Shown: positions 11,567-28,811 of the stretch, in pieces
Position numbering within the stretch: the first letter of the stretch is position 1
Layout: every line of letters begins with the position of its first letter
Virus record (IMG/VR): IMGVR_UViG_3300037467_000973
Coordinates: 1 to 28,811 of that record
From: a virus
Lineage: Duplodnaviria; Caudoviricetes
Length of the DNA stretch: 28,811 bases
Strand: one strand, 5' to 3'
Notes under the pieces: generated by a model
What the model saw: the letters and a program-made list of their open reading frames with translations, nothing else
Database searches by the model: none
Told to the model about the DNA's origin: nothing
Program-made: the position numbers and the translations under genes

Positions 11567-12794
11567 GGCGTTCTTACCGCTATTAAGGCCGGCTCGATAC
11601 AAGGGCGCTCATGGCGGCCGCGGCTCGGGCAAGTCGCATTTCTTCGCCGAGATGCTGGTCGAGCGAGCACTGATGCAGCCTGGATTGCGGGCAGCGTGCC
11701 TTCGTGAGATCCAGAAGAGCCTGAAGAACTCGGTCAAGCTGCTGGTCGAGGACAAGATCAAGTCGCTCGGAGTCGGCGGCTTCGAGATACTGGAAAGCGA
11801 AATCAAGACGCCCGGTGGCGGCGTCATCATCTTTCAGGGGATGCAGAACCACACGGCCGACTCGATCAAGTCGCTGGAAGGGTTTGACATTGCCTGGGTG
11901 GAAGAAGCGCAGTCGCTAAGCCAGCGTTCGCTGGACTTGCTCAGGCCGACCATTCGCAAGGCCGGTTCGGAGCTGTGGTTCAGCTGGAACCCGAACAAGC
12001 CGACCGATCCCGTGGATTCGCTGTTGAGGGGGGAATCGCCACCGGCTGACGCTGTAGTGGTCGAGGTGAACTGGTCTGACAATCCGTGGTTGCCCGACGA
12101 ACTGAGGGCGGACCTGGAAGACGACCGGAAACGTGATCCGGACAAGTTCCTTCACGTCTGGGGCGGGCATTACAGCCTCAACAGCGAAGCGCGGGTATTT
12201 CGCAACTGGAGGGTCGCAGAGTTTGAGTCACCTGATGACGCGGTCCACAGATTTGGCGCCGACTGGGGTTTTGCGATCGACCCCACGGTTCTCGTTCGAT
12301 GCCACATCGACGGGCGCAACCTATACGTTGATCAGGAAAGCTGGGCGGTTGGATGCGACATTGATCGCCTACCCGACCTATTTGACCGAATACCGGGCTG
12401 CCGCAAATGGCTTATACGCGCTGACAGCGCCCGCCCTGAAACAGTAAGCTACATGCGTCGGCAGGGCTTCCGCATCACTGCGGCCCTGAAGGGCAAAGGC
12501 TCATTGGAAGACGGCGTCGAGTTCTTGCGCGCCTTCGATATCGTGGTTCATCCCCGGTGCAAGAAGGTGATCGAGGAACTGACGCTCTACGCTTACAAGA
12601 TCGACGAGCACACCGGTGAAATCCTGCCGCTGCTCGAAGACAAAAACAACCACACGATCGACGCGCTACGCTACGCTTTGGAAGAGCTGAGGCGCACTGG
12701 ATACAAGCCCGCGCCGGTTCCCGTGAAGGTGCGCCGCGACGGCTACTGGCCCAAGGAACTGATGGAGGACGGTGAATCGTGGAAGACCGCGTGA
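11532..12794 (+). CDS. terL: Terminase large subunit, PBSX family
   Basis: GGRGSGKS Walker A, AWVEEAQ Walker B, SWNP, GADWGF, ADSARPE, NHTIDALRYA; GTG 11532 with GAGG SD. Confidence 0.96.
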   Translation: MSSSTLQIQTARAFLPLLRPARYKGAHGGRGSGKSHFFAEMLVERALMQPGLRAACLREIQKSLKNSVKLLVEDKIKSLGVGGFEILESEIKTPGGGVIIFQGMQNHTADSIKSLEGFDIAWVEEAQSLSQRSLDLLRPTIRKAGSELWFSWNPNKPTDPVDSLLRGESPPADAVVVEVNWSDNPWLPDELRADLEDDRKRDPDKFLHVWGGHYSLNSEARVFRNWRVAEFESPDDAVHRFGADWGFAIDPTVLVRCHIDGRNLYVDQESWAVGCDIDRLPDLFDRIPGCRKWLIRADSARPETVSYMRRQGFRITAALKGKGSLEDGVEFLRAFDIVVHPRCKKVIEELTLYAYKIDEHTGEILPLLEDKNNHTIDALRYALEELRRTGYKPAPVPVKVRRDGYWPKELMEDGESWKTA

Positions 12795-14704
12795 CTTCGT
12801 CCCTCACCATGCTCGTCCAGTGGTTCGAGAGCGCCGAAGAGGCGTCGCAGAACGGGCGTAAGGAGTCGGAGCAGGCGCGCGATTATTACGACGGCAAGCA
12901 ACTGACGGCGGAAGAGCGCAAGATCCTGCGCAAGCGTCGGCAGCCGGAAGTCGTCATCAACCGCATCAAGCGCAAGATCGACTTCCTGCGCGGGCTGGAA
13001 CGTCAATCGCGCACCGATCCGATCGCTTATCCGAGGACCGCGGTTCACGAGGAGGAGTCCGAAGCCGCCACCGATGCCTTGCGGTTCGTCGCGCAGGACC
13101 AGCTGTTCGACATGAAGCGCTCGGCGGTATGGGACAACATGCTCGTCGAGGGCATGGGCGGCGTTGAGGTCGGTGTCACCCAGGGGCGCGACGGCATCGA
13201 CGTGAAGATCACGCGCCTGCCGTGGGACCGCTGCTTTGCCGACCCGCATTCGTCCGAGCCGGACTTCTCCGATGCGCGCTACCTTGGTTACGTGACCTGG
13301 ATGGACGTATCCGAGGCCAAGGCGATGTGGCCGGACAAGGTGCAGCTCATCGAAAGCACGATGAACCACCCGGTCTCATCGAATGCCGACACTTACGACG
13401 ACAAGCCGCGCTGGGCGCTGTGGGGCGACGACAAGCGCAAGCGCATCCGTATCGTGACCATGTGTTACCGGGTTGCCGGCGTGTGGCAGGGCTGCGTGAT
13501 GACGCTCTCCGGCTTTCTTGAGGAGCCGCAGCCGAGCCCGTTCCTTGACGAAGACGGCAAGCCTGAGTGCCCGATCGTGTTCCAGTCGGCTTATGTCGAT
13601 CGGGACAACGACCGCTATGGCGTCGTGCGCGACATGATCAGCCCGCAGGACGAAGTGAACAAGCGCCGCTCCAAGGCGCTGCATCTGCTGACCATGCGGC
13701 AGTCTCGCGTGTCGGCCGCCGCAACGAGCGATCCGGAGAAGATCAGGGCGGAGCTCGCCAAGCCTGATGGTGTAATCATCGGCGAGGACGGCGAGTTCGA
13801 GATTCTGCCCAACAACGACCAGGTAGCCGGACACTTCCAGCTAATGCAGGAAGCCAAGTCCGAGATCGACATGCTCGGCCCCAATGCGACGCTCCAGGGC
13901 AAGTCAGGACAGGATCAGTCGGGCCGGGCGATCATGGCCCTGCAACAGGGCGGCATGGTCGAGCTCGCGCCGCTTTTGGACCAGCTCCACCAGTTCAACA
14001 TCCGCGTATTCCGTCAGGTATGGAACCGCATCCGCCAATATTGGACGACCGAGCGCTGGGTGCGCGTCACAGATGACGAAAAGGGCGTTACCTTTGTTGG
14101 CCTGAACACCACGCAGGGCGCTCTCGCGGCGCGCAAGGTGGATGCGGCACTGGCGGAAGGAAAGATCGACCGCGCCACAGCCCAGCAATACAAGATGCAG
14201 ATCCAGATGGACCCGGCGATGATGCAGCCGGCCAACAGCGTTGCCGAGCTCGACGTTGACATCGAGATCGAGGAGACGACCGAAACCCCGACCGTCCAGA
14301 TGGAGCAGTTCGAGCAGCTGACCAAGCTTGCCGCCACGGGGTTGGTGCCGATCCCGCCCGAGATCATCCTTCAGGCATCGTCACTCAGGGACAAGAACAA
14401 GCTCCTCGACATGCTCAAGCAGTCGCAGGACTCGCAAGGGCAGATGGGCCAGATGGCGCAGCAGATTCAGCTGGAAGGCGCGCAAGCCAACATCGCCAAG
14501 GTAAAGTCGGAAGCGATCAAGAACATCGCGCAGGCACAGGCTGCTGCGGTCCCCAAGGACGTTCCCGCCGAAGATCCGCACGTGAAGGCCGCGCAGGAAG
14601 CGGTGCGCCTGATGCTCGAAGCCAGAGCGCAGAACACCGACGAATTCAGGGCTGAGACGGAGCGCATGACGGCTACGCAGCCGATGCAGCAACCGCCGGC
14701 CTAA
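12791..14704 (+). CDS. Portal protein (P22-like)
   Basis: DYYDGKQ, VINRIKRKIDFLRG, YGVVRDMISPQDEVNKRRSK; Q-rich C-terminal helix; follows TerL. Confidence 0.93.
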   Translation: MTSSLTMLVQWFESAEEASQNGRKESEQARDYYDGKQLTAEERKILRKRRQPEVVINRIKRKIDFLRGLERQSRTDPIAYPRTAVHEEESEAATDALRFVAQDQLFDMKRSAVWDNMLVEGMGGVEVGVTQGRDGIDVKITRLPWDRCFADPHSSEPDFSDARYLGYVTWMDVSEAKAMWPDKVQLIESTMNHPVSSNADTYDDKPRWALWGDDKRKRIRIVTMCYRVAGVWQGCVMTLSGFLEEPQPSPFLDEDGKPECPIVFQSAYVDRDNDRYGVVRDMISPQDEVNKRRSKALHLLTMRQSRVSAAATSDPEKIRAELAKPDGVIIGEDGEFEILPNNDQVAGHFQLMQEAKSEIDMLGPNATLQGKSGQDQSGRAIMALQQGGMVELAPLLDQLHQFNIRVFRQVWNRIRQYWTTERWVRVTDDEKGVTFVGLNTTQGALAARKVDAALAEGKIDRATAQQYKMQIQMDPAMMQPANSVAELDVDIEIEETTETPTVQMEQFEQLTKLAATGLVPIPPEIILQASSLRDKNKLLDMLKQSQDSQGQMGQMAQQIQLEGAQANIAKVKSEAIKNIAQAQAAAVPKDVPAEDPHVKAAQEAVRLMLEARAQNTDEFRAETERMTATQPMQQPPA

Positions 14705-14724
14705 CAAGGGAAGAACAGAACAAC

Positions 14725-14810
14725 CGGGCGTCCTCGCAAAGGGATGCTCGCCATGCCCGTCGCCGGGGCTTTTCGGGCGTCAACTGGTCGCCGCAGTTCA
14801 ACGGGCGATG
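14725..14810 (+). ncRNA. Candidate cis-regulatory RNA: hairpin plus two tandem pseudoknot-like units
   Basis: Two hairpins with identical loop GTCGCCG, each followed by CGGGCG. Confidence 0.6.
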
Positions 14811-14826
14811 ACGAGGACGACCTAGC

Positions 14827-15654
14827 ATGAGTGGAGACCTGGATAGCGTTCTGAATGGTGAACAGACCCCGGTGCCGGAGATTGAAACTCCAGCAGCGCC
14901 GGAAACCCAACCCGAACCCGTTGCGCAAGCACCGGAGCCGGAGGCGGAGGAGCCGAAAGGCCCTGTCCGCGACGAAAAGGGGCGGTTTGCACCGAAGGGC
15001 GAGAAAGACGAAGGCGCGTCGCCAGCGCCGCAGAGCGAGCCTCCATTAGACCACGCAGCAATCCTCGGGGAGCGACGCCGCAGGCAAGAAGCCGAAGCCC
15101 GCATTCGGGAACTGGAAGCGCAGATTGCGCGACCGGCGCCTCAAGTCACGCAGTCCCAACCTCCGGTTCAGGCTGCACCGTTCGAGTTCAATGAAGACCT
15201 TTACTGGTCCAATCCGCAGCAGTTCCTCGCCACCTTCTCGCAGCACATCCGTCAGGAAGTCATGCGCGAAGTGCCCAATATCGTCACCGCGACGACCCTT
15301 GACCGGGCGGAAGCGGCGGCGAGGGCGCGTTACGAGGATTACGATGGGGCGCGTGATGCGTTCTATCAGGCGGCAGTGGTCAATCCTCAGCTCGCGCAAA
15401 AGGCATTGATCCAGCCCGACCCTGCGGAGTTCGCTTATCAGGAAGGCAAGCGCCTTCTCGAAATGGCGAATTACGGCTCGACGAACGACTATATCGAGGC
15501 GGAAGTAGCCCGACGGCTGGCTGACGCACAGAAGGCCCCAACAGCAGCTCCCGTCATCCCCACGTCCCTCGCGGACGCTCCGGCATCTGGCCCCACAGGC
15601 GAGGCTCCGGCGCGTCCAATGGCGCTCGACGAGATTATCGCTCGCAAGCGCTGA
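14827..15654 (+). CDS. Scaffolding protein
   Basis: Acidic/Pro-rich N-terminus, RDEKGRFA, ERRRRQEAE coiled coil; between portal and capsid. Confidence 0.85.
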   Translation: MSGDLDSVLNGEQTPVPEIETPAAPETQPEPVAQAPEPEAEEPKGPVRDEKGRFAPKGEKDEGASPAPQSEPPLDHAAILGERRRRQEAEARIRELEAQIARPAPQVTQSQPPVQAAPFEFNEDLYWSNPQQFLATFSQHIRQEVMREVPNIVTATTLDRAEAAARARYEDYDGARDAFYQAAVVNPQLAQKALIQPDPAEFAYQEGKRLLEMANYGSTNDYIEAEVARRLADAQKAPTAAPVIPTSLADAPASGPTGEAPARPMALDEIIARKR

Positions 15655-15737
15655 ACCAACCCTGATTCCACGCCGTGAGGCGTCGAGTCCCGCTCTGTTG
15701 AGCAGCCCTCTTCGGAGGGTCGAAGGAAACCTAACCA

Positions 15738-16787
15738 ATGAGTCTGACGACCGTTACGACCAACCTGGTCGAACAGCAGTGGGATAACGACTTCTTCGCT
15801 GCTTACGTCCGCGCCAATCGCTTCAAGCGCTACATGGGCACGGCCACCAACTCGATCATCCAGCTCAAGGAGCAACTTGGCTCCAAGCCGGGCGATCGTA
15901 TCCACATTCCGCTGATCTCCGAGCTGACCGGTGCCGGCCAGACCGGCGATGGCCTGCTGGAAGGCAATGAAGAGGCGCTGGGCCAGTATGAGGATGCGGT
16001 CACCGTGTCCACGCTGCGTCACGCTGTCGCTGTCACCGACAACCAGCAGCAGTTCACGGGCATCGACCTTCGCATCGCGGCGAAGGAACAGCTCCAGAAC
16101 TGGGCAATGAAGAAGCTGCGCACGAGCATCATCAACGCGCTCGGCTCGACCGATGGCACGACGGCGTATGCGTCGGCCTCGGAAGCCAACAAGGACGCGT
16201 TCCTGGTGGCGAATGCCGATCGCGTTGTGTTCGGCGACGGCACCACCGCGGCGGCTTACACCGACCACTCGGCGGACCTCGCCCTCGTCACGTCAGCAAT
16301 GACGATGTCGAAGGAGATCGTCTCGCTGATGAAGGCGAAGGCGGAGAACGCTTCCCCGATCATCCGTCCGGTGACGGTTGGCGAGGACAGCGAAAACTAC
16401 GTCCTTTTCGTCGGTTCGGGCGCGTTCCGTGACCTCAAGGCGGATCTGGCGCAGACGCTCCAGAACGCCCAGGAGCGCGGCGACGGCAACCCGCTCTTCA
16501 ATGACGGCGACCTCATGTATGACGGCGTCGTTATCCGCAAGATCCAGGAAATCCCGGCAACGGGCACGGTCGGCGCTTCGTCGGCCCGCCTTGAGCCGAT
16601 TTACCTGTGCGGCGCCCAGGCTCTCGCGGTTGCGTGGGCTCAGCGCACGAAGAGCACCACCGACACGCGCGACTACGGCTTCGTAAAGGGCGTCGGCATC
16701 CACGAGATGCGCGGCGTCAAGAAGATGTTCTTCAACTCGAAGCAGCACGGCGTCGTCACCGGCTACGTCGCGGCTCTCGCCGTCTAA
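15738..16787 (+). CDS. Major capsid protein (DUF4043 / N4-gp56-like)
   Basis: KPGDRIHIPL...LEGNEEAL...LRHAV...NPLF...LCGAQAL. Confidence 0.92.
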   Translation: MSLTTVTTNLVEQQWDNDFFAAYVRANRFKRYMGTATNSIIQLKEQLGSKPGDRIHIPLISELTGAGQTGDGLLEGNEEALGQYEDAVTVSTLRHAVAVTDNQQQFTGIDLRIAAKEQLQNWAMKKLRTSIINALGSTDGTTAYASASEANKDAFLVANADRVVFGDGTTAAAYTDHSADLALVTSAMTMSKEIVSLMKAKAENASPIIRPVTVGEDSENYVLFVGSGAFRDLKADLAQTLQNAQERGDGNPLFNDGDLMYDGVVIRKIQEIPATGTVGASSARLEPIYLCGAQALAVAWAQRTKSTTDTRDYGFVKGVGIHEMRGVKKMFFNSKQHGVVTGYVAALAV

Positions 16788-16793
16788 CGAACT

Positions 16794-16824
16794 GAGGGGG
16801 CGGGGCAACTCGTCCCCTCTTTTT
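16794..16824 (+). terminator. Intrinsic terminator after capsid
   Basis: GAGGGGGCGGG-GCAA-CTCGTCCCCTC followed by TTTTT. Confidence 0.85.
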
Positions 16825-16837
16825 CAGGAGCCGAAAC

Positions 16838-17041
16838 ATGGCAACGCTCAAACGCTCGATCACCGGGTCGAATGTCGATCAGACGGACTTGGTCCGCCTC
16901 CTCGGCAATATGAAGGACGCGATCAACGCGCTGATTTCCGACCACAACACGCTTCGCGCCAAGCTCAATGCGGACGCCGGCGTGACCGATACCAACTACG
17001 CGGCTTCGACCGCATCCACGGTCAAGCTGACCAAGGGCTAA
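16838..17041 (+). CDS. Small virion protein (head decoration/fibre-like)
   Basis: SD AGGAG; coiled-coil INALISDHNTLRAKL; flanked by terminators. Confidence 0.7.
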   Translation: MATLKRSITGSNVDQTDLVRLLGNMKDAINALISDHNTLRAKLNADAGVTDTNYAASTASTVKLTKG

Positions 17042-17044
17042 CTC

Positions 17045-17072
17045 GGGCGGGGGCTTCGGCCTCCGTCCTTTT
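17045..17072 (+). terminator. Intrinsic terminator
   Basis: GGGCGGGGGC-TTCG-GCCTCCGTCC followed by TTTT. Confidence 0.85.
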
Positions 17073-17088
17073 CTAGCGGGAGCGGCCC

Positions 17089-17412
17089 ATGACGAAGGCT
17101 GAATTGAGAGATCATGCCCTTCGCCAGATGGGCGTCATCGGTGCTGCTGAGGAGGCCTCGGCCGAAGACGCGGCGTTGATGGAAACGATCATCGACAACT
17201 GCCAGGACGAGCTTGAGCAGATGGAGGTGGCCCTGTGGCCCGTGGACGACGTTCCGGGCTACGCGATCGAGAGCTTCACGCACTACGTGAAGGCGTCCTG
17301 CACGGCGTGGGGGCAGGATTACGACCCTCGCCTGAAGGGCCTCGCACTGGCACAGCTTCGCACGGTCACGGCAGACCGCCGCTCAGGCGTGGGCAGGGCT
17401 GAATATTTCTAA
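17089..17412 (+). CDS. Head-tail adaptor (P22 gp4-like)
   Basis: MTKAELRDHALRQMGVIGAAEEASAED; ends AEYF; position. Confidence 0.8.
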   Translation: MTKAELRDHALRQMGVIGAAEEASAEDAALMETIIDNCQDELEQMEVALWPVDDVPGYAIESFTHYVKASCTAWGQDYDPRLKGLALAQLRTVTADRRSGVGRAEYF

Positions 17413-18809
17413 TGGGCAACCTTACGCTGGTCGGCCCGTCCAATGCCGTTCTAACGAAAGTCGATAGCCAGCGGTCGATCAACTGGTTTCCCGTCAAGCC
17501 GGAGGCGGAGAACGCCCGTCCCTACCTTCGCGGGCGTCCGGGGCTGGATTTGCTCTGCACATTGCCGAAGGGGCCATGCCGCGGGCGACTGGAGATGAAC
17601 GGGCGGCTGTTCGTGGTCGCCGGCTCGTCAATCTATGAGCTATATTCGGACGGCACCTATCGCGAGTGGGGGCGGATTGCCTCGGTCGAGGGCAAGGTCT
17701 CGATGGCCTTCCTCCTGCAAGTCATCGTGATCGGCGACGGCTCGGGCTATTATGCGCTGGATCTGACTGCCGGCACGGTGGATGCGATCACCGATGCGCC
17801 ACGCGGGCGGTTCTGCGTCTTTCGCAACCAGCGCATTCTATACCAGGGCGAGAACGGGCAGGTCTTCTACTCCGAGCTCAACGACCCGACCAACATCCCC
17901 GGCCTCAACTTCTTCACCGCCGAAAGCCTGCCTGACGAGATCGTGGCGATCACCACGTCCGAGGATTTGGTGTTCCTCCACGGCTCGGATTCGACCGAAG
18001 CCTGGTATGACTCGGGCGACAGCGACAACCCGTTCCAGCGAGTGCAGGGCGGCGTCATGTATTCCGGCTGCGGGTTTGCCGACACGGCCCTGCGGCTCGA
18101 CAATTCCTCATGGTGGGTTGAGACCGACAAGGACGGGACTGGGATTGTTCGGAGGACGCAGGGCGCGACCCCGATGCGGGTATCGACCTCCCCGGTTGAA
18201 TCCGCGCTGAAAGGCGCTTCGGAAGTCTCGGCTTATTCCTACCAAGAGGACGGCCACGCCTTCTTGGTCATCAACATCGACCGCATTCCGTCGTGGGCTT
18301 ACGACCTCAAGGAACAGGAGTGGCACGAGCGGGCGTGGCTCAACGAGGATGCGGGAGAGCAAGAGCGCCCACGCCCTGAGCTGTGCGCCTTCGCGTTCGG
18401 CTCACACATCGTCACCGACTACGAGAACGGTAACGTCTATCGGCAGAGCCTCGATTACCTGTCGGATGACGGCAACGAAATCCGCCGCACGCGCGTAAGC
18501 CCGCATTCCGGGACTGACGGCAAGCAGATCATCATCGACGAGCTTTATCTGGACTTCGCTACCGGCGTCGGTCTGGATGGAACGGGCCAAGGCACTGATC
18601 CCGAAGTCATGCTCCAGGTGTCCAAGGACGGGGCAAGCTACGGCATCGAGCGCACCGCCAAGCTCGGCAAGATCGGCCAGTATCGCAACCGGGTGAGGTT
18701 TCATCGACTCGGGCTAGGCACGGATTGGCTGCTCAAGATCAGTGTGTCCGATCCCGTGGTTACTGCGCTGATGGGCGGCGACGTGGTTGCGCGAGTGGGC
18801 CGCAGATAA
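17412..18809 (+). CDS. Tail hub / DNA stabilisation protein (P22 gp10-like)
   Basis: 465 aa; AESLPDEIV, YQEDGHAF, WAYDL...WHER, VMLQVSKDG, SVSDPV. Confidence 0.9.
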   Translation: MGNLTLVGPSNAVLTKVDSQRSINWFPVKPEAENARPYLRGRPGLDLLCTLPKGPCRGRLEMNGRLFVVAGSSIYELYSDGTYREWGRIASVEGKVSMAFLLQVIVIGDGSGYYALDLTAGTVDAITDAPRGRFCVFRNQRILYQGENGQVFYSELNDPTNIPGLNFFTAESLPDEIVAITTSEDLVFLHGSDSTEAWYDSGDSDNPFQRVQGGVMYSGCGFADTALRLDNSSWWVETDKDGTGIVRRTQGATPMRVSTSPVESALKGASEVSAYSYQEDGHAFLVINIDRIPSWAYDLKEQEWHERAWLNEDAGEQERPRPELCAFAFGSHIVTDYENGNVYRQSLDYLSDDGNEIRRTRVSPHSGTDGKQIIIDELYLDFATGVGLDGTGQGTDPEVMLQVSKDGASYGIERTAKLGKIGQYRNRVRFHRLGLGTDWLLKISVSDPVVTALMGGDVVARVGRR

Positions 18810-19258
18810 TGGCCGGACGCGACTTCCCGATCCGCCTCGACCTGGTGAAATTGGGGCTGCCGGAGCGCACGATCCAAGTGCTTGAGAAGGCGGCGTTGAT
18901 CGTTTCGACGATCGAGCGGGTAACGGGAACGGAAACCAGCCTCGACACGGTGAGCGGGCAGATCGACACGCTCAATGACGCAGTCGAAGATGCAAACCTG
19001 TCGCTGACGAGCCTCGACACGCGGCTGGACGCGATCGAGACGCTGCAACCGTTCGTCAGGCAGGACCAGACTTCCGCGTGGTCAGCCGCCACAGGGACTG
19101 AAGCGCGGACGGCTTACGCAGCTTACGCGGGGCAGACGGTCAGCAACCCGCCGACGCAGGCCGAAGTCCAGACGATCGACGATGCGGTGAAGGCGCTAGG
19201 GCAGCATCTCGCGGCGCTGATTAACGATCTTCGCTCGAACGGGACGATCCACGAGTGA
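18809..19258 (+). CDS. Tail needle-like coiled-coil protein (gp26 position)
   Basis: ATG 18809 (TAATG); heptads LDTVSGQIDTLNDAVEDANLSLTSLDTRLDAIE. Confidence 0.72.
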   Translation: MAGRDFPIRLDLVKLGLPERTIQVLEKAALIVSTIERVTGTETSLDTVSGQIDTLNDAVEDANLSLTSLDTRLDAIETLQPFVRQDQTSAWSAATGTEARTAYAAYAGQTVSNPPTQAEVQTIDDAVKALGQHLAALINDLRSNGTIHE

Positions 19259-19677
19259 TTTACCGGGCGACCGACGCCGCCATTCACAATGCCATTGCCA
19301 ACCACCCCAAAGTCAAGCCGACCATCAGCTACACCGAGGAATACGCGGACTTCACCCCGCTGCTCGATCATCCCGATCAATACGTCCTGCTGCACGACGA
19401 AAACGGGGCAGCGTCCATCTTCGAGTGGTCAGCTCCGGATGTGTGGCAGGGCCACAGCATGTTCCTCCCGCAAGCGCGCGGACGGGCCGGAATCGAGTCC
19501 GGCAAGGCCATGATTGCGTGGATGTTCGACCACGGCGCGCGGATGATCTGGGGGCAGACCCCGCTCGATAACCGGGCAGCACGAATGTTCAATCGCCTGA
19601 TCGGCGCAAAGCCAAACGGAACCGGCGTTCATCACGTCGCCGGGCCGGTTCAATACTTCATTTTCGAGAGGGAATAG
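19255..19677 (+). CDS. GNAT-fold virion assembly protein (P22 gp14/DUF2824-like)
   Basis: HSMFLPQARGR...NRAARMFNRLIG; position between needle and ejection genes. Confidence 0.78.
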   Translation: MIYRATDAAIHNAIANHPKVKPTISYTEEYADFTPLLDHPDQYVLLHDENGAASIFEWSAPDVWQGHSMFLPQARGRAGIESGKAMIAWMFDHGARMIWGQTPLDNRAARMFNRLIGAKPNGTGVHHVAGPVQYFIFERE

Positions 19678-19679
19678 GA

Positions 19680-20288
19680 ATGCCAGCAGGTGCAATTGGC
19701 GGCGCGCTCTTGGGCGGCGGCTCAATCCTTGGCGGTATCCTCGGCGGCAAGGGCGCGAAGAAGGCGGCCAAGGCCCAAGTTCAGCTTGGTCGCGAAGCCC
19801 TCGATCTGCAAAGGCAGATGTTCGAGGAGGGGCGCACCGATCTTGCGCCGTGGCGCGAAGCTGGCGGTCAGGCAATCGGACAGGGCCTCGCCATGCTCCA
19901 GCCCGGCTACGATTACACCGCCTCGCCTGGATATCAGTTTCGCTTCAACGAGGGTCAGCGGGCGGTAGATTCCTCCGCTGCTGCCAAGGGCATGTTGATG
20001 AGCGGCGGGACACTTAAAGATTTAACCCGTTTCGGACAGGGCGTGGCAGCGGCGGACTTCAACGACCAGTTCAATCGCGTGATGTCGGTTGCTGGCGGGG
20101 GACAGCAAGCGGCCACATCAACCGCCGGCCTCGGTCAGAACTATGCCAACTCTGCTTCTGGCATCCTCAACAACATCGGGCAGGCCAAGGCATCGGGTTA
20201 TGCTGGTCAGAACCAAGCCGTCCAGGGCACGCTCGGCAACCTCGCGGGACTCTATGGCATGGGCGCATTCAAAGGGTTGGGCTTCTAA
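19680..20288 (+). CDS. DNA ejection protein (gp7-like)
   Basis: Gly/Ala-rich; PGYQFRFNEG...SAAAKGMLMSGGTLKDLTRFGQG. Confidence 0.85.
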   Translation: MPAGAIGGALLGGGSILGGILGGKGAKKAAKAQVQLGREALDLQRQMFEEGRTDLAPWREAGGQAIGQGLAMLQPGYDYTASPGYQFRFNEGQRAVDSSAAAKGMLMSGGTLKDLTRFGQGVAAADFNDQFNRVMSVAGGGQQAATSTAGLGQNYANSASGILNNIGQAKASGYAGQNQAVQGTLGNLAGLYGMGAFKGLGF

Positions 20289-21026
20289 ATGGCGTTCGAT
20301 CCACAAGCTTTCGCCCCTGCCGACATCGTTGGGGCCTACGGCAAGGGCCTGCAAGTCCGCCAGATGCAGCAGGAGCAGGATAACAAGGCCCGCTTGGCCG
20401 ATCTGCTCCCGCAGGCGGTTCACGGCAATCAGCAGGCGATCGACCAGATTGCGCAGATCGACCCGCAGCTGTTCATGCATCTCGACGATCGGCAGAAGCA
20501 GCAGGCGCAGGCCGAGCTTCATGACGTTTCGAGCGCCGTCCGTTGGGCGCTAAGCGATCCGAACCAGAAGGCGCAGCGCTGGAATCAGGTTGTCGATTAC
20601 TACAGCCAGCACGTTCCACAGGTGGCGCAGTATCGCGATCACCCGGAGATGGCTGAAACCGCCCTGTTGCAGCTCGGGCAGATCGGCGAATACCTCAAAG
20701 GTGCCCAAGGCGGCGAACCGACCACATTCCAGCGGGACTACCAGTTCCTCCAGAGCAAAGACCCCAAGCTTGCCGATCAATATCTGCATCAGCACGCGGA
20801 AGGTGCTCCGCTCGTCGCGAACAACGGCGACGGCACGTTCACCATCATCCCCCGCGGCTATTCGGGCGGCGCTCAACCCTCGGCCAATATCCCGCAGGGC
20901 GCGATCGACTTTCTGAAGTCCAATCCCGCCCTCAAGAGCCAGTTCGACGAGAAGTATGGCCCAGGAGCAGCCGACAAAGTGCTAGGAGGTCAGATGGGCG
21001 CCGGCCCGTCTGGCGGCTTTCTCTAG
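20289..21026 (+). CDS. DNA ejection protein (gp20 position)
   Basis: Q/A-rich helical protein; C-terminal IPQGAIDFLKSNP...FDEKYGPGAA motif. Confidence 0.75.
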   Translation: MAFDPQAFAPADIVGAYGKGLQVRQMQQEQDNKARLADLLPQAVHGNQQAIDQIAQIDPQLFMHLDDRQKQQAQAELHDVSSAVRWALSDPNQKAQRWNQVVDYYSQHVPQVAQYRDHPEMAETALLQLGQIGEYLKGAQGGEPTTFQRDYQFLQSKDPKLADQYLHQHAEGAPLVANNGDGTFTIIPRGYSGGAQPSANIPQGAIDFLKSNPALKSQFDEKYGPGAADKVLGGQMGAGPSGGFL

Positions 21027-21366
21027 GGCATTTGACGCGATTATTCAGCAGGAGTCCGGCGGCAACGGGACGGCTGTGAGCAGCAAGGGCGCGCTCGGCT
21101 CGACGCAGATGCTCCCCGGAACCGCTCGGCTGATGGCTGACAAGCTCGGGCTTCCCTTTCGGCCCGATCTGCTGCGGTCCAACCAGCCAGAAGCGCTTCA
21201 ATATCAGCGGCGCCTTGGCGAGGCTTACTTCCAGCAGGGCTTGGACGAGACCGGCAATCTCGTGGACGCCTTGCATTATTACCACGGCGGCCCGGATCGT
21301 CGCCAGTGGGGACCGAAAACACGCGCTTACGCTCGGGCTATCATGGCTCGCATCGGGGGATATTAA
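21019..21366 (+). CDS. Lytic transglycosylase (SLT) domain lacking its own canonical start
   Basis: FSRAFDAIIQQESGGNGTAVSSKGALGSTQMLPGTA...ALHYYHGGP...TRAY; catalytic ES (21052-21057) lies upstream of first GTG (21076). Confidence 0.85.
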   Translation, partial: FSRAFDAIIQQESGGNGTAVSSKGALGSTQMLPGTARLMADKLGLPFRPDLLRSNQPEALQYQRRLGEAYFQQGLDETGNLVDALHYYHGGPDRRQWGPKTRAYARAIMARIGGY

Positions 21367-24104
21367 TGCCCAATCCGTTCGATCAGTTCGACCAGCCTTC
21401 GCAGGCTCCCGCGATGTCGGGGCCGGTGACGGTTGGCACTCCGCGTCCGGACAAGCCCGAACTCCGCCAGGTTGGCAACTCGCTTGGCCTCGTGGACAAG
21501 AATACCGGCCACTTCACTCCGACCTATACTCCGCCCAAAGACGAGACCGCGAAAGATCCCAACGGCACGCAAGGCATGGCGGCTGGCTTCTATGGTCGCG
21601 CGCTCTTCGCGAACAAGAAATATGGCGACGGCCTTCCGCCCCGCGATGCACTGTCGCAGGGCATCCTCGACGCCCTCCCGACGAGCATTTCAAACTCGCT
21701 CAGCGGGCATGACCGCCAGCTCGCCAATACATACGCCCGCGACTTCGTTGCCGCCACGCTCCGCAAGGAATCTGGCGCGGCGATCAGCGAGCAGGAGTAT
21801 CAAAACCAATACGTCCGCTACTTCCCGCAGCCCGGCGACTCGCCCGATACAATCAAGGCCAAGGCGCAGCTTCGCGAGACGGCCATTCAGTCTCTCCGCG
21901 ATCAGGCTGGGCCGGCGGCATCCTCGGCTGATGAAAACGTCCAGAAGATGCTTCAGGGCGACGCCAGCGGCTCGGATCGTGAGTTCGGAAACCACGACAG
22001 CCACGGTGAGCTGACGCCGGAACAGCAGGCCCGCGACCAACAGTTTATCGCGTCAAACCCGACGCCCGAGCAATATGCTGCATTTCTCGAAGGAATGCTC
22101 GGCAAGAAGGTCGATCACGCACTCGCGGCTGAACGCTTGAAGCTCACGCTGGCGGGCGGGGCGTACAATCCCGGTGTCGTCGATCCTCGTGTTCAGCAGC
22201 GCGTCGATCAGATGCAGCAGGAAGGTGGCGGTGGCGGCGCAGCATTCGTCGCTGGCGCGGCCGATGCTGCCGGCCTTGGGTTGTCGGATGAGTTCGGTGC
22301 CGGAGTCAGCGCTCTTGGGCAGTCGCTATCCGGTCAGGGATCGTTTGGCGATAATTACAACGTCGATCTCCAGGCCAATCGCCAGTATCAGCGCGGCCTT
22401 CAGAACGATAACCCGCTACCGTATCTCGGCGGGCAATTCGTTGGCGGCGCAGCCCTGCCTGTGGGTCGAGCGACGAGCCTTGCGGATCTGGCGAAAGCCG
22501 GTGTGGCCTACGGCGGAGCTTATGGCGTAGGCTCTGGCGAAGGCCTCAGTGGACGCCTGACGGGCGGTGTTACCGGCGCCGCTGCGGGCGGAGCGATCGG
22601 CGCTGCCACGGGCGGCCTCAGCCAGCTTTTGCGCGGCAAGCAAGCCGCCGCTGTCCCCGACTTGGTCGATCCGGTCAGCGGAAGACTGAATGAGCCGCTT
22701 GAGGCCATGAGTCCCGGCGGGCGCGTCGCTTCGGCCAACGATCTTGGAATCAACCTCCCAATGGGTGCTGCGACGGATCGTGGCGGGGCGATCATCGAAA
22801 AGGGGCTGGACAACCTCCCAGGCTCGGCCGGCGTGATGAATGACGCCCGCCGCACTGTCGAAGGTCAGGTTTCGGACGCGGCAGAGAATGTCGCAAGCAA
22901 GTTCGGTTCATCGCGCACGCTCAACGAGGCCGGTTCGGAGCTCCAGCGCGGAGCGATCGAGCGCAACGACCGTGCCGATGCGTTGATCACCAAGGCTTAC
23001 AACCGCATCCCGATCGCGGACACCGCCCCCGCTTCAAACTCCAACACTGTCGGCACGCTCCAGCAGCTCACTGGCCGCTTCGAGTCCAATCCTGAACTCG
23101 CCGGGATGGTCAAGGACCCGCGCCTCGAAGGCTACATGAACGCCATCCAGAAGGGTGGGCTTAGCTGGAAGGACATGAAGGACTTCCGCACGCTGATCGG
23201 CGAGAAGATCGGCGAGCTCAGGGTTGGCGAAGACAGCCGCACAAGCGACCTACGTTCGCTTTACGGCGCATTGTCCGAAGATATGCGGGCGACGGCCAGC
23301 GCTCAGGGCAACGGCGCACTGAAAGCCTTCGAGCGTGCGAACAGCCTCAACCGCGAGAACGAACAACTGGTCCAGGGCGCACTGACCCGCATCCTGGGCA
23401 AGGACGGCAATCTCGCGCCGGAAAAGGCGGCTGCGGCAGTCCAGGCGATGACCAAGGGCGGCAAGGCGACCGGGGACATCAGGACGCTTGCCCAGATCAA
23501 GGGCGCGACAGTCAAGAGCGGGGCCTGGGATGAAGTCGCGGGAACGCTGATCCGGCTCGGCGGACAGCCTGCTAACAGCCCCGGACGTTCGTTCGATCCG
23601 GGCACGTTCGTTCGCTGGTATGCCGACATGAGCGAGCCGGCGCGCAGGCTGCTGTTCAAGCCGGAGCTGCGCCAGACCCTCAACCAGTTCGTGGCGGTCA
23701 ACCAGCGCCTCGCTGGCTCGAACGCGCTTCGCAATACCTCGAACACGGTTCCGGGCTTCATCGGCACCGGATTCGCCGGGGGCGCGGGTATGGCGGCAGC
23801 GTCGGGCAATTTGAAGATGCTGCTGGCGATCGGCGCAGAGGCCGCGGCCAACTACGGCATGGCTAAGGTGTGGACCAATCCCGGTTTCGTCAAATGGGCC
23901 ACTGGATTTGCCAAGGCCAATTCGCAGGGCGCGGCGAGGGCGCAGATCGGACGGCTTGCGAAGCTCGCGACGACCAACCCGGAGTTGCGCGAGGGGCTGA
24001 TGGCGATCCAGCGCAAGCTGCTGGAATCGGCCAACGACAATTTCACACCGCGCGCTGTGGCCTCAGCTCCCGACCAGGGACAGCAGGACGAAAACCGCCC
24101 CTAG
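21366..24104 (+). CDS. Large DNA ejection protein (gp16 position)
   Basis: ATG 21366 MPNPFDQFD; LRKESGAAISEQEY...YFPQPGD; Gly/Ala-rich hydrophobic segments; 912 aa. Confidence 0.85.
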   Translation: MPNPFDQFDQPSQAPAMSGPVTVGTPRPDKPELRQVGNSLGLVDKNTGHFTPTYTPPKDETAKDPNGTQGMAAGFYGRALFANKKYGDGLPPRDALSQGILDALPTSISNSLSGHDRQLANTYARDFVAATLRKESGAAISEQEYQNQYVRYFPQPGDSPDTIKAKAQLRETAIQSLRDQAGPAASSADENVQKMLQGDASGSDREFGNHDSHGELTPEQQARDQQFIASNPTPEQYAAFLEGMLGKKVDHALAAERLKLTLAGGAYNPGVVDPRVQQRVDQMQQEGGGGGAAFVAGAADAAGLGLSDEFGAGVSALGQSLSGQGSFGDNYNVDLQANRQYQRGLQNDNPLPYLGGQFVGGAALPVGRATSLADLAKAGVAYGGAYGVGSGEGLSGRLTGGVTGAAAGGAIGAATGGLSQLLRGKQAAAVPDLVDPVSGRLNEPLEAMSPGGRVASANDLGINLPMGAATDRGGAIIEKGLDNLPGSAGVMNDARRTVEGQVSDAAENVASKFGSSRTLNEAGSELQRGAIERNDRADALITKAYNRIPIADTAPASNSNTVGTLQQLTGRFESNPELAGMVKDPRLEGYMNAIQKGGLSWKDMKDFRTLIGEKIGELRVGEDSRTSDLRSLYGALSEDMRATASAQGNGALKAFERANSLNRENEQLVQGALTRILGKDGNLAPEKAAAAVQAMTKGGKATGDIRTLAQIKGATVKSGAWDEVAGTLIRLGGQPANSPGRSFDPGTFVRWYADMSEPARRLLFKPELRQTLNQFVAVNQRLAGSNALRNTSNTVPGFIGTGFAGGAGMAAASGNLKMLLAIGAEAAANYGMAKVWTNPGFVKWATGFAKANSQGAARAQIGRLAKLATTNPELREGLMAIQRKLLESANDNFTPRAVASAPDQGQQDENRP

Positions 24105-24179
24105 CGACCACGCGCGCCACCGCCGCGGCGTCAGAAGCCCGACGACCAACAGCAACAGCCCGACTTGCCAGAGCTTCAC
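24063..24179 (-). CDS. 38-aa membrane protein, candidate superinfection exclusion factor
   Basis: Hand translation MKLWQVGLLLLVVGLLTPRRWRAWSLGAVFVLLSLVGS; candidate promoter TTGGTC-17-TAGTCA ending 6 nt before GTG. Confidence 0.6.
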   Translation of the reverse strand: MKLWQVGLLLLVVGLLTPRRWRAWSLGAVFVLLSLVGS

Positions 24180-24206
24180 CAGCCCTGACTAGCAAAGGAA
24201 TGCCTA

Positions 24207-24845
24207 GTGACCAAGGTTCTTTGGTCCTCGTTTCAGCAGCTCTTCGATGAATACGGAGACGTGCTGAACGGGGGCAAAATCCAGACCGACGCCGGCGGCA
24301 CGACCACCCCCAAGGCGACCTATACCGACTCCACCGGGAATGTCGCCAACGCGAACCCGATCGTCCTTTCGGCATCGGGCCGCAAGACTGGCGGCATCTG
24401 GGTCAACAAGGGCGAGGCTTACAAGTTCACGCTGCTTGCCAGCGACGACACGGAACTCGACGTGATCGACAATGCGGTGGTCGGGGAAGTTGCGACCACG
24501 GATACCCAGCGGCTTCTCATTTCGATGACCTATTGCGGCACTCCCGGCGCGCAGGGCTTCATGGGCGGCGCTGAAATCCTCAACACCGCGACCATTGCCG
24601 TGGACTTCGATGGGGCATCGGGCAGTGTCCAGACCAACCCGGCAGCCGATTACGTCATCTCAATCAAGAAGAACGGGTCCGAAGTCGGCACGGTTACAAT
24701 CGACGCGTCCGGCGTGTTCACATTCGCGACCTCGGGCGGGGCAACCGTCCCCCTGGCCTTCGGCGATACGCTTGCGTTCATCGGCCCCGATTCCATCGGA
24801 ACGGCGGCCGACTTCACCATCACTCTCGCGGCAGACCTCGCATGA
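24207..24845 (+). CDS. Tail fibre/spike attachment protein
   Basis: GDVLNGGKI...AGGTTTPKATYTD...ANANPIVLSASGR N-terminus typical of podophage fibre anchors. Confidence 0.78.
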   Translation: MTKVLWSSFQQLFDEYGDVLNGGKIQTDAGGTTTPKATYTDSTGNVANANPIVLSASGRKTGGIWVNKGEAYKFTLLASDDTELDVIDNAVVGEVATTDTQRLLISMTYCGTPGAQGFMGGAEILNTATIAVDFDGASGSVQTNPAADYVISIKKNGSEVGTVTIDASGVFTFATSGGATVPLAFGDTLAFIGPDSIGTAADFTITLAADLA

Positions 24846-25834
24846 CGATCCTGACCGCCGGAGGCGAAATGGGATCGTTCACCCCATCCGATAACACCGT
24901 CTATGAAAGCACGAACGGCGGGGGGTTCAACAGCGCGTTCGCCCGTTGCGCGATCTACTGCAATAATAACGGCTCCTACGCGGAGTCCGAGGTCTTCACC
25001 GCTACGGCTGATTTCTGGCTGCACATCGAGATTACGAATACCTCGGCCTTCAACACCGATGGCACGTATCAAAAGCTCATCGAGTTTCTGGATAGCGGCG
25101 GAACCGCCCGCGTCAGACTGCTGGCGAACTCTCCTGCCGACTCCAGCGGCAACTGGAAGATGGAGTATTGGAACGGCAGCGCGTGGACGATCGCCGGTTC
25201 GGCCTACGCGGCAACAGTCAACACGCTCCAGACCTTCGACATTCACATTGTCTCAAACACCGCTAGCGGAACGGTGGCGTCCTACATCTCGGGAACGCAG
25301 AAAAGCTTGGCGACGGTCGATCTTTCGGCCTTCAGCGGCATCGCCCAGTTCCGCGTGTGGGGCAAGACGGTCGGCATCGCTGTTCCGGTTTATTACAGTC
25401 AGGCCATCGCAGCCAACGAGTCCACCATCGGTTGGCGCCTGACCACGGTTCCGCCCACGTCCGGAGGGGCAACAACCGACTGGACGGGCACTTATGCCGA
25501 GATTGACGAGATCACCTATTCGGACGCGGATTTCATCAACTCGGCAACGGTGAATCAGGTCGAGCTCGTCGCGCATTCGACCACGATCCCATCGGGCTAT
25601 CTGGTTCGCGGCGTCGCCGTGACTGCGCGTGGCCGGCGGTCGTCGGGATCTGGACCGCAACACCTCCAGCTGGCCGTTAGGTCGGGCGGAACGGTTTATG
25701 TCTCCGGCTCAAAGTCGCTGGGGCTAGGCTATCAGCCGTTCACCAACGTCTGGGAAGATGACCCGGCCACCAGCGCGGACTTCACCACCAGCGCGATTAC
25801 GTCCCTGCAATATGGCGTGAAGAGCATTACCTGA
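24842..25834 (+). CDS. Tail-associated beta-rich protein
   Basis: S/T/G/aromatic-rich 330 aa in fibre cluster. Confidence 0.7.
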   Translation: MTILTAGGEMGSFTPSDNTVYESTNGGGFNSAFARCAIYCNNNGSYAESEVFTATADFWLHIEITNTSAFNTDGTYQKLIEFLDSGGTARVRLLANSPADSSGNWKMEYWNGSAWTIAGSAYAATVNTLQTFDIHIVSNTASGTVASYISGTQKSLATVDLSAFSGIAQFRVWGKTVGIAVPVYYSQAIAANESTIGWRLTTVPPTSGGATTDWTGTYAEIDEITYSDADFINSATVNQVELVAHSTTIPSGYLVRGVAVTARGRRSSGSGPQHLQLAVRSGGTVYVSGSKSLGLGYQPFTNVWEDDPATSADFTTSAITSLQYGVKSIT

Positions 25835-26007
25835 TGGCTGACCAGGCAGAAGTTACTAAAGCCGTCGCTCATGTGGCTACAGGCCAGGTGAGCGACAGCG
25901 CAGCCGTCTCGAAGGTGGTTGCCTACCTGATCCTCGTTCCTGGCGATTCCGGTCCTGACACGTCGAACAGACAGGGCCACGTCCACACCCAGATAATCCG
26001 GAGATAG
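25834..26007 (+). CDS. Small tail-associated protein (57 aa)
   Basis: Hand translation MADQAEVTKAVAHVATGQVSDSAAVSKVVAYLILVPGDS...; TGATG coupling; exactly fills the gap. Confidence 0.7.
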   Translation: MADQAEVTKAVAHVATGQVSDSAAVSKVVAYLILVPGDSGPDTSNRQGHVHTQIIRR

Positions 26008-26008
26008 C

Positions 26009-26806
26009 ATGGCGCTCATCGTCGCTGATCGCGTGGCCGAGACCTCGACCACGACCGGGACAGGTGCGCTTACCCTTGCCGCTGCGATCACGGGATTTCG
26101 GCGGTTCTCGGCCGTCTGCTCGACCAATGACACAGCCTACTACGCCATCATCGCCGTGGACGGAAACGGCAATCCGTCAGGCGACTGGGAATGCGGACTG
26201 GGAACATACTCGTCGGCCAACACCCTTACTCGCACAACGCCGCAAGCCTCGACCAATTCTAACGCGGCGGTGAATTTCGGTGCCGGCACGAAATACGTTT
26301 ATCTATCATCGACAGCAGCGCATCTGGCAACCTTGCTCCCACCTAGCGCCGCAGTTGCTTCGGATCTCAATACCGGGACGAACACCACCAAATTTGTAAC
26401 CCCTGACGCTTTGGCCGGAGCCAACCTCGGCACTCCCACCATCACCCTTCTTGTCAGTGACCCTAACGGATCAGCGATCACGACTGGCGACGGCAAGGCT
26501 TACTGGCGGGTGCCTTCGACGCTGAACGGAATGAACCTGGTCGGCGTAGCGGCGCACGTCACAACGGTCTCATCGTCGGGGATTCCGACCATCCAGATCG
26601 CGAACGTAACCGACAGTGTGGACATGCTTTCGACCAAGCTGACGATCGATGCCAGTGAGAAGGACAGCAGCACCGCCGCGACGGCGGCGGTGATCGACAC
26701 CGCCCACGATGATGTTGCGACCGGCGACGAACTCCGGATCGACATTGACGTTGCCGGGACCGGAGCCAAGGGCCTCATGGTCGAGATGCAGTTCCAGCTT
26801 CCATGA
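26009..26806 (+). CDS. Tail fibre protein
   Basis: MALIVADRVAETSTTTGTG...WECGLGTY...LTRT...VNFGAGTKYV; TTKFVTP knuckle motif. Confidence 0.8.
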   Translation: MALIVADRVAETSTTTGTGALTLAAAITGFRRFSAVCSTNDTAYYAIIAVDGNGNPSGDWECGLGTYSSANTLTRTTPQASTNSNAAVNFGAGTKYVYLSSTAAHLATLLPPSAAVASDLNTGTNTTKFVTPDALAGANLGTPTITLLVSDPNGSAITTGDGKAYWRVPSTLNGMNLVGVAAHVTTVSSSGIPTIQIANVTDSVDMLSTKLTIDASEKDSSTAATAAVIDTAHDDVATGDELRIDIDVAGTGAKGLMVEMQFQLP

Positions 26807-27468
26807 TAATCCAGGCGGTCAAGTGCTTCTCAGGCAGTGGTAGTGCGGCGCCTGACGCCAACACCCTCTGGCTATTCCGCTACAATGTTTCACCGCCAAC
26901 CGATGAAATCACTAGCTTTGCCCTGACGTTGGCCGGCAACGCTACGGTGGACACGACCAACCACTGGATGACGTGCGACGGGGCGGGCGACTGGGCATCA
27001 ACCACCAACACGACCGGATTCAATATTCCCTCTGGCGACTTCACGCTGGAAATGCACATGCAAGTTCCGTCGGGCCAAGTCGGCGGATCGGTCTCGCGAC
27101 GGCCTGGGATCAACTCCGGTTCTTGGGCATGGTTTCACAATGGCAACGGAACGATAGATTGCTATTTCGACAATATCTCCGGATCTCCCCTGATCAATTT
27201 CGGAGCAGGTGCCGCGGACAATACGATGAAGCACTATGCTCTCGTGCGTTCGGGCAACACTTGGACGACATACATCAATGGAACTCAGAAGGGGACAGTG
27301 ACAAACTCCGGAACGATCGGCACTGCGCTCTCCACGTTCGGCATCGGGACCGATTTCTTCAATGCCGGAGCCCGCGATATTTCAGGCAACTTCGGGCGGT
27401 TGAAATGCTCCAATATCGCCCGCTGGACCTCTGGGGGCTTCACCCCGCCCGCGATCACCGACGTTTAA
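26803..27468 (+). CDS. LamG/concanavalin A-like receptor-binding protein
   Basis: GDFTLEM...HYALVRSGNTWTTYING...SNIARWTSGGFTPP. Confidence 0.85.
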   Translation: MIIQAVKCFSGSGSAAPDANTLWLFRYNVSPPTDEITSFALTLAGNATVDTTNHWMTCDGAGDWASTTNTTGFNIPSGDFTLEMHMQVPSGQVGGSVSRRPGINSGSWAWFHNGNGTIDCYFDNISGSPLINFGAGAADNTMKHYALVRSGNTWTTYINGTQKGTVTNSGTIGTALSTFGIGTDFFNAGARDISGNFGRLKCSNIARWTSGGFTPPAITDV

Positions 27469-28215
27469 CCGCCACGGCGCGACGATCCATTCCTTGAGGC
27501 CAGTCGGCTGCGGCATCCCCCCGACCCCGACCTCAGGCCACTCGTCTGATTGGGGCATGTAGAGCGTTCCGAAAAGCCAGTCCCATAGCGGGCTGAACGC
27601 TCCGAAGTTCTTGTTGAAGTGCTCCGGGTTCAGCGAATGATGGATGCGGTGATAGCGATTATCGACCCAAACGTAGCGCAGCGGGCCGAAGTGCGGTCGC
27701 GATGACGAGTGGATGTAGAATTGCTGATAGCGGAACAGCAGGACCAAGAGCCCTAGCGTGGGGGCAATCTTCACGTCGAAGAACATCAGCGGAATTGCAA
27801 CGGTGAGGCTCATGAAGGCCTCGGTCCAATGGTGGTAGCTGTTCGCTGCCGACAGGTCGCGGATCGAGTGGTGGACTGCGTGAAACCGCCAAAAGAAGCG
27901 ATGCTCGATCCGGTGGGCAATATAGAATTGAAGGTCGAGCCAAAGGGCCAGGACGACCGCACCGACCACTGGCGAGAAGACGCCCAAGTGGATCGGGATT
28001 GGCTTTATGCTCATGGCCTTCGAGATGTCACCCATAATCACCGCGACGCCGGCTCCTAGCGGCGCTGCGGCCAGCAGGAAGATGAAGCCGCCGGCCCTTC
28101 GCGGAAAAGGAATGCGTTCCTTTGGGAACGCCAGCTCGAACGGCAGGAAAATAGCCACGCCCGCGCACTGGTAGGCGAGCACGACCAGCAGGTTGGTAAG
28201 AAAATCCTCGACCAC
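27382..28215 (-). CDS. Fatty acid hydroxylase / sterol desaturase family membrane enzyme (moron)
   Basis: His boxes HRIEH, HAVHH, YIH, HRIHH; KNFG...WDWLFGT; start GTG 28215 (SD GGGAGG) or ATG 28227. Confidence 0.92.
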   Translation of the reverse strand: MVEDFLTNLLVVLAYQCAGVAIFLPFELAFPKERIPFPRRAGGFIFLLAAAPLGAGVAVIMGDISKAMSIKPIPIHLGVFSPVVGAVVLALWLDLQFYIAHRIEHRFFWRFHAVHHSIRDLSAANSYHHWTEAFMSLTVAIPLMFFDVKIAPTLGLLVLLFRYQQFYIHSSSRPHFGPLRYVWVDNRYHRIHHSLNPEHFNKNFGAFSPLWDWLFGTLYMPQSDEWPEVGVGGMPQPTGLKEWIVAPWRLNVGDRGRGEAPRGPAGDIGAFQPPEVA

Positions 28216-28311
28216 ACACCCTCCCATCCGAGCGCGATCATCTTAACCCGAATTAAACACCCAAGCCAAGCGGCTTCCCAGTCGGAGTGTATCAAAAATG
28301 GACCAGCCGAA

Positions 28312-28494
28312 GTGACGCACGATTACTACCGGGTGCTCGATTGGAGCACAGTGCTTTGCGCCGGTCTGGCCGCTTTCAGCTTTTGGCAGGGGATCGCCCT
28401 CGCGGTCACGATCCTCGCCGGCCTCATGTCGCTGACACTCGGCGCGATCCGCATCCATGACCGCCTGAGATACGGACCAGCGAGGGGCAAATGA
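28312..28494 (+). CDS. Holin-like small membrane protein
   Basis: 60 aa, hydrophobic core, basic C-terminus; downstream of fibres. Confidence 0.55.
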   Translation: MTHDYYRVLDWSTVLCAGLAAFSFWQGIALAVTILAGLMSLTLGAIRIHDRLRYGPARGK

Positions 28495-28640
28495 TCGAAG
28501 ATGACGGGTGGATCACCCTTTATCCCAAGCTGCCGAAGCTCGCCGACAAGGTGAGCGACCAGCTTCACCGGGCATATGACGACACCCTCAACGAGGAGAT
28601 CCCCGAACACCTGAAGAAACTGCTGGACGACCTGGACTAA
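28491..28640 (+). CDS. nepR: NepR-family anti-sigma-factor-like protein (49 aa)
   Basis: Hand translation MIEDDGWITLYPKLPKLADKVSDQLHRAYDDTLNEEIPEHLKKLLDDLD; SD GAGGGG; ATGA coupling. Confidence 0.75.
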   Translation: MIEDDGWITLYPKLPKLADKVSDQLHRAYDDTLNEEIPEHLKKLLDDLD

Positions 28641-28657: not shown

Positions 28658-28811
28658 GTGGCAGCCAATGACAACCCGCGCATCCTTTTCCTCGACATCG
28701 AAACCCGCCCCGCCACCGCTTACGTGTGGGGGCTTTTCGACATCAACATCGCGCTTAATCAACTGGTCGATGCTGGCGGCACGCTGTGCTTCTCAGCCAA
28801 GTTCCAGGGCG
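28658..28811 (+). CDS. RNase H-like (DnaQ/YprB-type) exonuclease, N-terminus only
   Basis: MAANDNPRILFLDIETRPATAYVWGLFDINIALNQLV...LCFSAKF; LDIET exo I motif. Confidence 0.85.
   Translation, partial: MAANDNPRILFLDIETRPATAYVWGLFDINIALNQLVDAGGTLCFSAKFQG

Follow-up and report, generated by a model that had tools for sequence, protein, structure and literature searches.

A NepR-family gene in the lysis cassette of a P22-like phage and its likely function in the host stress switch

The window analyzed here is a whole viral contig of 28.8 kb, about 68% complete, which carries replication genes and a late module of the P22-like podophage type. The gene under study lies near its end, behind a holin-like gene. 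The features of this region are listed below.

11352..27468, plus strand: P22-like podophage late module with terminase, portal, capsid, head closure, needle, ejection, and tail genes (Pfam and PHROG matches; colinear with a prophage in genome G598)
27382..28227, minus strand: gene of the sterol desaturase/fatty-acid hydroxylase family, an antisense insert before the lysis cassette (PF04116)
28228..28311, no strand: intergenic DNA ahead of the holin-like gene (its 23 nt at 28251-28273 recur unchanged in contig G002)
28312..28494, plus strand: holin-like membrane protein of 60 residues, its stop overlapping the start of the NepR-like gene (hydropathy up to 2.3; same slot before endolysins in relatives)
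28482..28487, plus strand: Shine-Dalgarno-like GAGGGG within the end of the holin-like gene (from the sequence)
28491..28640, plus strand: small NepR-family gene encoding the 49-residue protein P0001 (ORF call, Pfam, codon signal, homologues)
28491..28547, plus strand: N-terminal 19 residues, with the subfamily motif IExDGWITxxP; helix 1 begins at residue 15 (family alignment, AlphaFold2)
28548..28637, plus strand: NepR core, residues 20-49, with the end of helix 1, the linker EEIP (35-38), and helix 2 (39-48) (Pfam, PDB profile alignment, AlphaFold2)
28658..28811, plus strand: exonuclease gene (phrog_403), truncated where the contig ends (PHROG; an endolysin follows in relatives)

Positions 28491-28640 hold a real phage gene of the NepR family, which is conserved, accessory, and found in a new setting. 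In alphaproteobacteria, NepR is what holds the general stress response off. Its product begins with MIEDD and ends with LLDDLD. A sequence-only reading of this DNA had described an ORF with its own Shine-Dalgarno sequence, coupled to the holin-like gene, and both elements are in place: the ATG overlaps the TGA of the holin-like ORF (ATGA), with the GAGGGG just upstream. The frame has a third-position GC of 0.82 and a codon score of +0.315; the exact antisense frame scores +0.141, and the remaining four frames are negative. We compared codons in 15 pairs drawn from six phage genes of the family and found different codons at 105 of 196 identical residues, so it is the protein that is conserved. 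An overlapping gene in another frame was rejected as the cause of the conservation, the other frames being broken or unconserved and the antisense frame carrying a stop in one case of six.

The C-terminal NepR pattern claimed from the letters alone holds residue for residue (L25, A28, Y29, T32, E35, I37, P38, L41, L44, L45, and L48). On residues 20-49, the Pfam NepR model (PF18557) scores 33.5 bits (E 3.2e-8), above its cut-off of 25.7, so the fit is more than chance. When a profile of 14 family members was searched against the PDB, four NepR chains were the top four of 11 matches (best 2lfw_B, E 3.9e-5). The AlphaFold2 model has a helix at residues 15-34, a linker at 35-38, and a second helix at 39-48 (mean pLDDT 82.7); a helix-linker-helix layout is described for Caulobacter NepR in the available part of PMC4551977. 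In S. melonis NepR, L32 and Y36 are required in vivo (excerpts of PMC6599016). Their equivalents in P0001, by alignment to 2lfw_B, are L25 and Y29, and the linker residues E35 and P38 are also kept. The key leucine is present in 34 of 35 family rows, the aromatic residue in 35/35, the linker glutamate in 35/35, and the proline in 34/35, counts that are partly circular as the rows were gathered with a related profile. S. melonis R33 is replaced by histidine in P0001, and the R33A exchange was without consequence in vivo for S. melonis NepR (excerpts of PMC6599016).

Several searches gave no such match. The full-length NCBIfam model NF051865 did not match P0001 and matched only one of the 35 family rows, which counts against a role as stress damper. 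Foldseek returned no match for the P0001 model, which is very small; the single-sequence PDB search gave no NepR match and three weak unrelated ones; and PHROGs has no family for P0001. The N-terminus had been called unrelated to NepR. Residues 15-23 are part of a helix 1 extension that is conserved, and a subfamily has the IExDGWITxxP start in common, so the description holds only in part. In length, 24 residues precede the key leucine in P0001, compared with 7 in the inactive short form of Caulobacter NepR, 24 in its start-codon-3 form, and 37 in the full-length protein; the flank sequence itself is unrelated. In two-hybrid tests the start-codon-3 form retained binding to PhyR and sigma-T, according to the available part of PMC4551977. 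The same source, as far as available, reports that Caulobacter NepR cut to Q31-E62 bound sigma-T, gave no in vivo repression, and did not bind PhyR~P. That failure of a core-only NepR in vivo is the main doubt over a damper role, and a further point against it is that in 25 of 35 family rows the key leucine is preceded by no more than 13 residues.

A protein search with P0001 gave a homologue that is 67% identical. A profile search gave 27 matches, of which two (P0007 and P0013) were spurious and about ten host-like, and a further search gave 33 matches among 867 candidates; genomic context was readable for a minority of the homologue proteins. The family has two subtypes, one of 46-51 residues starting IExDGWITxxP, which includes P0001, and one of 37-38 residues starting MTKDG. 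In a 33-column tree, a single branch (90/88, rough) splits 34 phage-type rows from 36 host rows, and the phage-type rows are closest to the host NepRs of the likely host family. Three context-blind pattern scans of viral contigs gave 32 loci. Twenty were dropped as false (1/4, 17/21, and 2/7 by scan), and the 12 true ones cover eight distinct contigs (G002, G003, G004, G005, L007, L233, L234, and L236), whose NepR-family genes all exceed the Pfam cut-off (8/8).

Other searches added no carriers. P0001 against viral contigs gave 63 pattern matches with none confirmed, and the N-terminal motif gave none in viral contigs. GenBank phages gave 76 weak matches, the 40 listed all being phiKZ-like structural genes at E 0.4. 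The single locus of the metagenome scan was a lysyl-tRNA ligase-like gene, and among the matches listed by the genome-wide pattern scan none of 120 loci was true. In the likely host family, no prophage-type copy was found among the best 30 of 259 matching genomes (401 in total); all 30 matches were host loci next to ecfG or phyR. Two further proteins were noted: the 100-residue P0008 has a 55-residue unknown N-terminal part followed by the IExDGWITxxP motif and a diverged NepR-like core, and at L207:6095-6949 (G209) a host EcfG has a NepR-like segment fused N-terminally.

The genomic slot is constant among the carriers. In 8/8 other phage contigs, the NepR-family gene directly follows a short holin-like ORF, overlapping its stop in seven and lying 2 nt away in one, so the survey proposed earlier, for orphan nepR near phage lysis genes, gave a positive result. 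In the eight carriers, an endolysin gene lies downstream, directly or past an exonuclease or HNH gene. The preceding holin-like genes differ in type among the carriers, and the carrier capsid modules belong to at least three families. In the window, the 60-residue ORF has no Pfam or PHROG match; we call it holin-like on the basis of its size, hydrophobicity, and position. In L001, which lacks the NepR-like gene, the slot between holin-like gene and lysozyme holds an unrelated 40-residue ORF without Pfam match (L001:9560-9682).

The DNA just upstream is also of note. The stretch 28228-28311 contains TTAA-N6-TTAA and the 23-nt block as in G002, and soil contigs retain it while the flanking genes vary; it may serve the cassette or the cargo gene as a promoter. 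One soil assembly contig keeps this stretch and the NepR-like ORF, but where the holin-like gene would lie it has 175 different letters. An antisense membrane-enzyme cargo gene lies between tail genes and lysis cassette in the window (27382-28227, minus strand), at L150:3351-4232, and at L226:2309-3292 (minus strand). In the window the cargo belongs to the sterol desaturase family; G002 has one that looks similar, and the G598 prophage has a membrane protein of another kind.

In a set of 151 genomes from a single genus, G598 contains an integrated colinear relative of the window phage (terminase 75%, portal 48%, and capsid 45%), which ends near tRNA-Thr. In 401 genomes drawn from the class, the best portal match reached only 34%. 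The G598 genome has a phyR-nepR-ecfG locus. PhyR from G221, a genome in the same genus, has a sigma-like domain whose score is 187 bits on 2lfw_A against 103 on 3t0y_A, structures which we take to be from Sphingomonas and Caulobacter, respectively. Because of this higher score on 2lfw_A, the host family of G598 is likely Sphingomonadaceae. The 3T0Y structure is named in the available part of PMC4551977. Since the colinear prophage sits in the G598 genome, the comparison points to a temperate window phage in a host with the PhyR-NepR-EcfG switch. Integrases are present in three near-complete carriers (G002, G003, and G004). The lytic growth during which the gene was said to act thus stands as a phase, but as the lytic phase of a temperate phage.

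The NepR-like gene is absent from the close relatives (the G598 prophage, L001, and Pan3), and it is therefore accessory and dispensable for this phage type. A prophage in G159, compared through its exonuclease, was of an unrelated type and uninformative. Pseudanabaena phage Pan3 (L149, ON968454.1; 61% GC) is the best named relative by portal (47%), and its gene order resembles this alphaproteobacterial phage type, which is odd beside its recorded cyanobacterial host. A stand-alone gene for a DnaA C-terminal helix-turn-helix precedes the replication genes at 4590-4886 and is also found in G002, G004, and the G598 prophage. A 2-kb stretch of the window was found in DNA runs of 11 soil or rhizosphere studies, all from one year and one of them possibly the source; among the runs listed for this stretch, none was RNA sequencing.

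The phages appear to lack stress-switch genes of their own. No EcfG or PhyR homologue was found in the window, a 68% complete fragment, or in G002-G005, L001, and L007. The orphan status proposed for the gene in a phage late operon is thus supported. An EcfG promoter motif lies upstream of 0/6 phage NepR-family genes vs 12/12 host loci, and no sigma-70-like site was found upstream of the P0001 gene nearer than 26781-26810.

A function of P0001 in the stress switch is likely, judged from these sequence comparisons. We consider it rather probable, with clear reservations, that P0001 is a late-made damper of host EcfG which holds down the general stress response late in infection. Since the gene overlaps the holin-like gene, the protein would be made late in the lytic cycle together with the holin-like product. 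Its two helices would wrap around EcfG, the sigma factor of the host; the conserved face suggests binding to the sigma fold of EcfG and to that of PhyR. The general stress response would then stay off during particle maturation and the onset of lysis, presumably to the benefit of the phage. Titration of phosphorylated PhyR may act as a helper route, with the same fold and the same direction of effect. The conserved residues and the host paralogues are consistent with both EcfG sequestration and PhyR~P titration, the two modes first proposed for this gene, and either lowers EcfG activity according to the available part of a review (PMC8103513). However, a stress damper might be expected early rather than among the lysis genes, which counts against late damping.

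An EcfG-type motif was found in relatives at a place where EcfG damping may matter. In five of six carriers with a gap before the endolysin, the opposite strand has GGAAC-N16/17-CGTT no more than 10 nt from the endolysin start (four exact, one with one mismatch; L234 lacks it). It is absent from the two carriers whose NepR-like gene abuts the endolysin (0/2) and from three related phages without a NepR-like gene (0/3). Among 679 SD-preceded ATGs in these genomes, which include the endolysin starts of G002 and G003, it occurs at 4. Two of three new cases, L233 and L236, which were found by protein pattern after the motif had been defined, repeat it. Half of the motif overlaps the endolysin Shine-Dalgarno sequence in most cases, though not in L233, and it carries less weight for that reason. 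The window ends at 28811, before the endolysin start, and the motif is known from relatives alone; a one-mismatch copy near 28805 is at chance level and was discarded. A promoter pattern scan, with 2/9 matches at endolysin starts, was discarded as circular, both having shaped the pattern.

Downstream of the motif, no shared antisense RNA structure was found at six loci (folding z-scores -2.3 to +1.3). Antisense to about 3770-4000 of L153 (G003), a 77-residue ORF with a good Shine-Dalgarno sequence lies downstream of the motif and runs toward the NepR-like gene. L233 and L236 have in common, just past the NepR-like stop, a word of 11 nt and, after it, a hairpin on the antisense strand. In relatives, damping EcfG would also silence this EcfG-type promoter, which points back into the lysis genes. 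A double-negative loop, in which an EcfG-fired antisense promoter restrains the holin-nepR cassette until the phage NepR shuts EcfG off and frees lysis, is a tentative and rather doubtful extension. If true, temperate phages would wire lysis to the host stress switch.

P0001 might instead be a sponge for phosphorylated PhyR alone, never binding EcfG and freeing host NepR to hold it. Host orphan paralogues act so in the available parts of PMC4814048 and PMC6599016, where those of M. extorquens and S. melonis bound PhyR and gave no EcfG binding. The residues flanking helix 1, to which Luebke 2018 (quoted in excerpts of PMC9303464) attributes PhyR specificity, are also kept in the phage family, K20 in 31 of 35 rows. 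However, the core-only Caulobacter protein kept sigma-T binding and lost PhyR~P binding (PMC4551977, available part), and S. granuli NepR2 binds both EcfG and PhyR (PMC9303464, excerpts), so we judge binding to PhyR alone unlikely. We give little credence to the idea that P0001 is merely what is left of a captured nepR, weak or close to neutral in its effect. Its accessory distribution and the inactivity of truncated NepR in Caulobacter (PMC4551977, available part) would fit, but the protein is kept while codons diverged, the N-terminal motif is conserved and family-specific, and the gene has spread over at least three capsid types.

The other two alternatives turn on the position of the gene. 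The strict coupling to holin-like genes, and the unrelated ORF that fills the slot in L001, could mean that a NepR-derived peptide was co-opted for lysis timing through the holin or endolysin, leaving the stress switch unaffected. This is very unlikely, as the gene persists while the holin-like gene type changes, the residues it conserves are the ones that act on sigma folds, and P0001 has no membrane segment. The position beside the holin-like gene could also be a mere cargo hot spot, the gene tuning stress tolerance of the lysogen. The carriers are temperate and cargo genes lie just upstream on the other strand (in the window, G002, and G598), but the gene overlaps the holin-like stop in the window and 7/8 relatives, has neither an EcfG promoter nor a nearby sigma-70-like site, and a lysogen expressing it would make the holin too; we regard such a cargo role as improbable.

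If P0001 is a late damper of EcfG, a phage switches off the bacterial general stress response with a trimmed copy of the host's inhibitor. It would suggest that phage growth or lysis is limited by the stress response of alphaproteobacteria, a link for which we found no paper in the literature searched. That literature, with subscription journals mostly outside its scope, gave no paper on a phage-encoded NepR either. The natural variants of 37-49 residues test the minimal N-terminal flank length of NepR, and they could serve as small EcfG inhibitors in studies of soil- and plant-associated alphaproteobacteria.

Compared with the NepR of the PhyR-NepR-EcfG switch (PF18557; 2lfw_B, 3t0y_B, 5uxx_B, and 4qic_B), P0001 likewise has two helices and a 4-residue linker, the key leucine and aromatic residue in helix 1, and glutamate and proline in the linker. 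It ends one residue past the last leucine, as do several host NepRs of the likely host family. In contrast to canonical NepR, it is phage-borne and coupled to a holin-like gene, and its N-terminus is shorter, conserved, and predicted helical, whereas that of host NepR is variable and disordered. P0001 is not a canonical NepR, because it misses NF051865, no ecfG or phyR lies in the phage records, and no EcfG promoter stands upstream.

Stand-alone host nepR paralogues that damp the stress response are already known (available parts of PMC4814048 and PMC6599016), so the new part is carriage by a phage. Examples are META2p0735 of M. extorquens, NepR2 of S. melonis, and NepR2 of S. granuli, additional NepR copies with a damping effect (available parts of PMC4814048, PMC6599016, and PMC9303464); of three M. 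extorquens paralogues, two were without effect on overexpression (PMC4814048, available part). All of these belong to cells, and META2p0735 and S. granuli NepR2 are induced via EcfG-type promoters, whereas the phage gene lacks such a promoter and rides a lysis cassette. T7 Gp5.7 (bioRxiv 10.1101/262279, available part) is a functional analogue only: it is also a small phage protein, one that blocks the host stress and stationary-phase factor sigma-S, but it is an unrelated protein that acts on the sigma-S holoenzyme and is not copied from a host anti-sigma factor.
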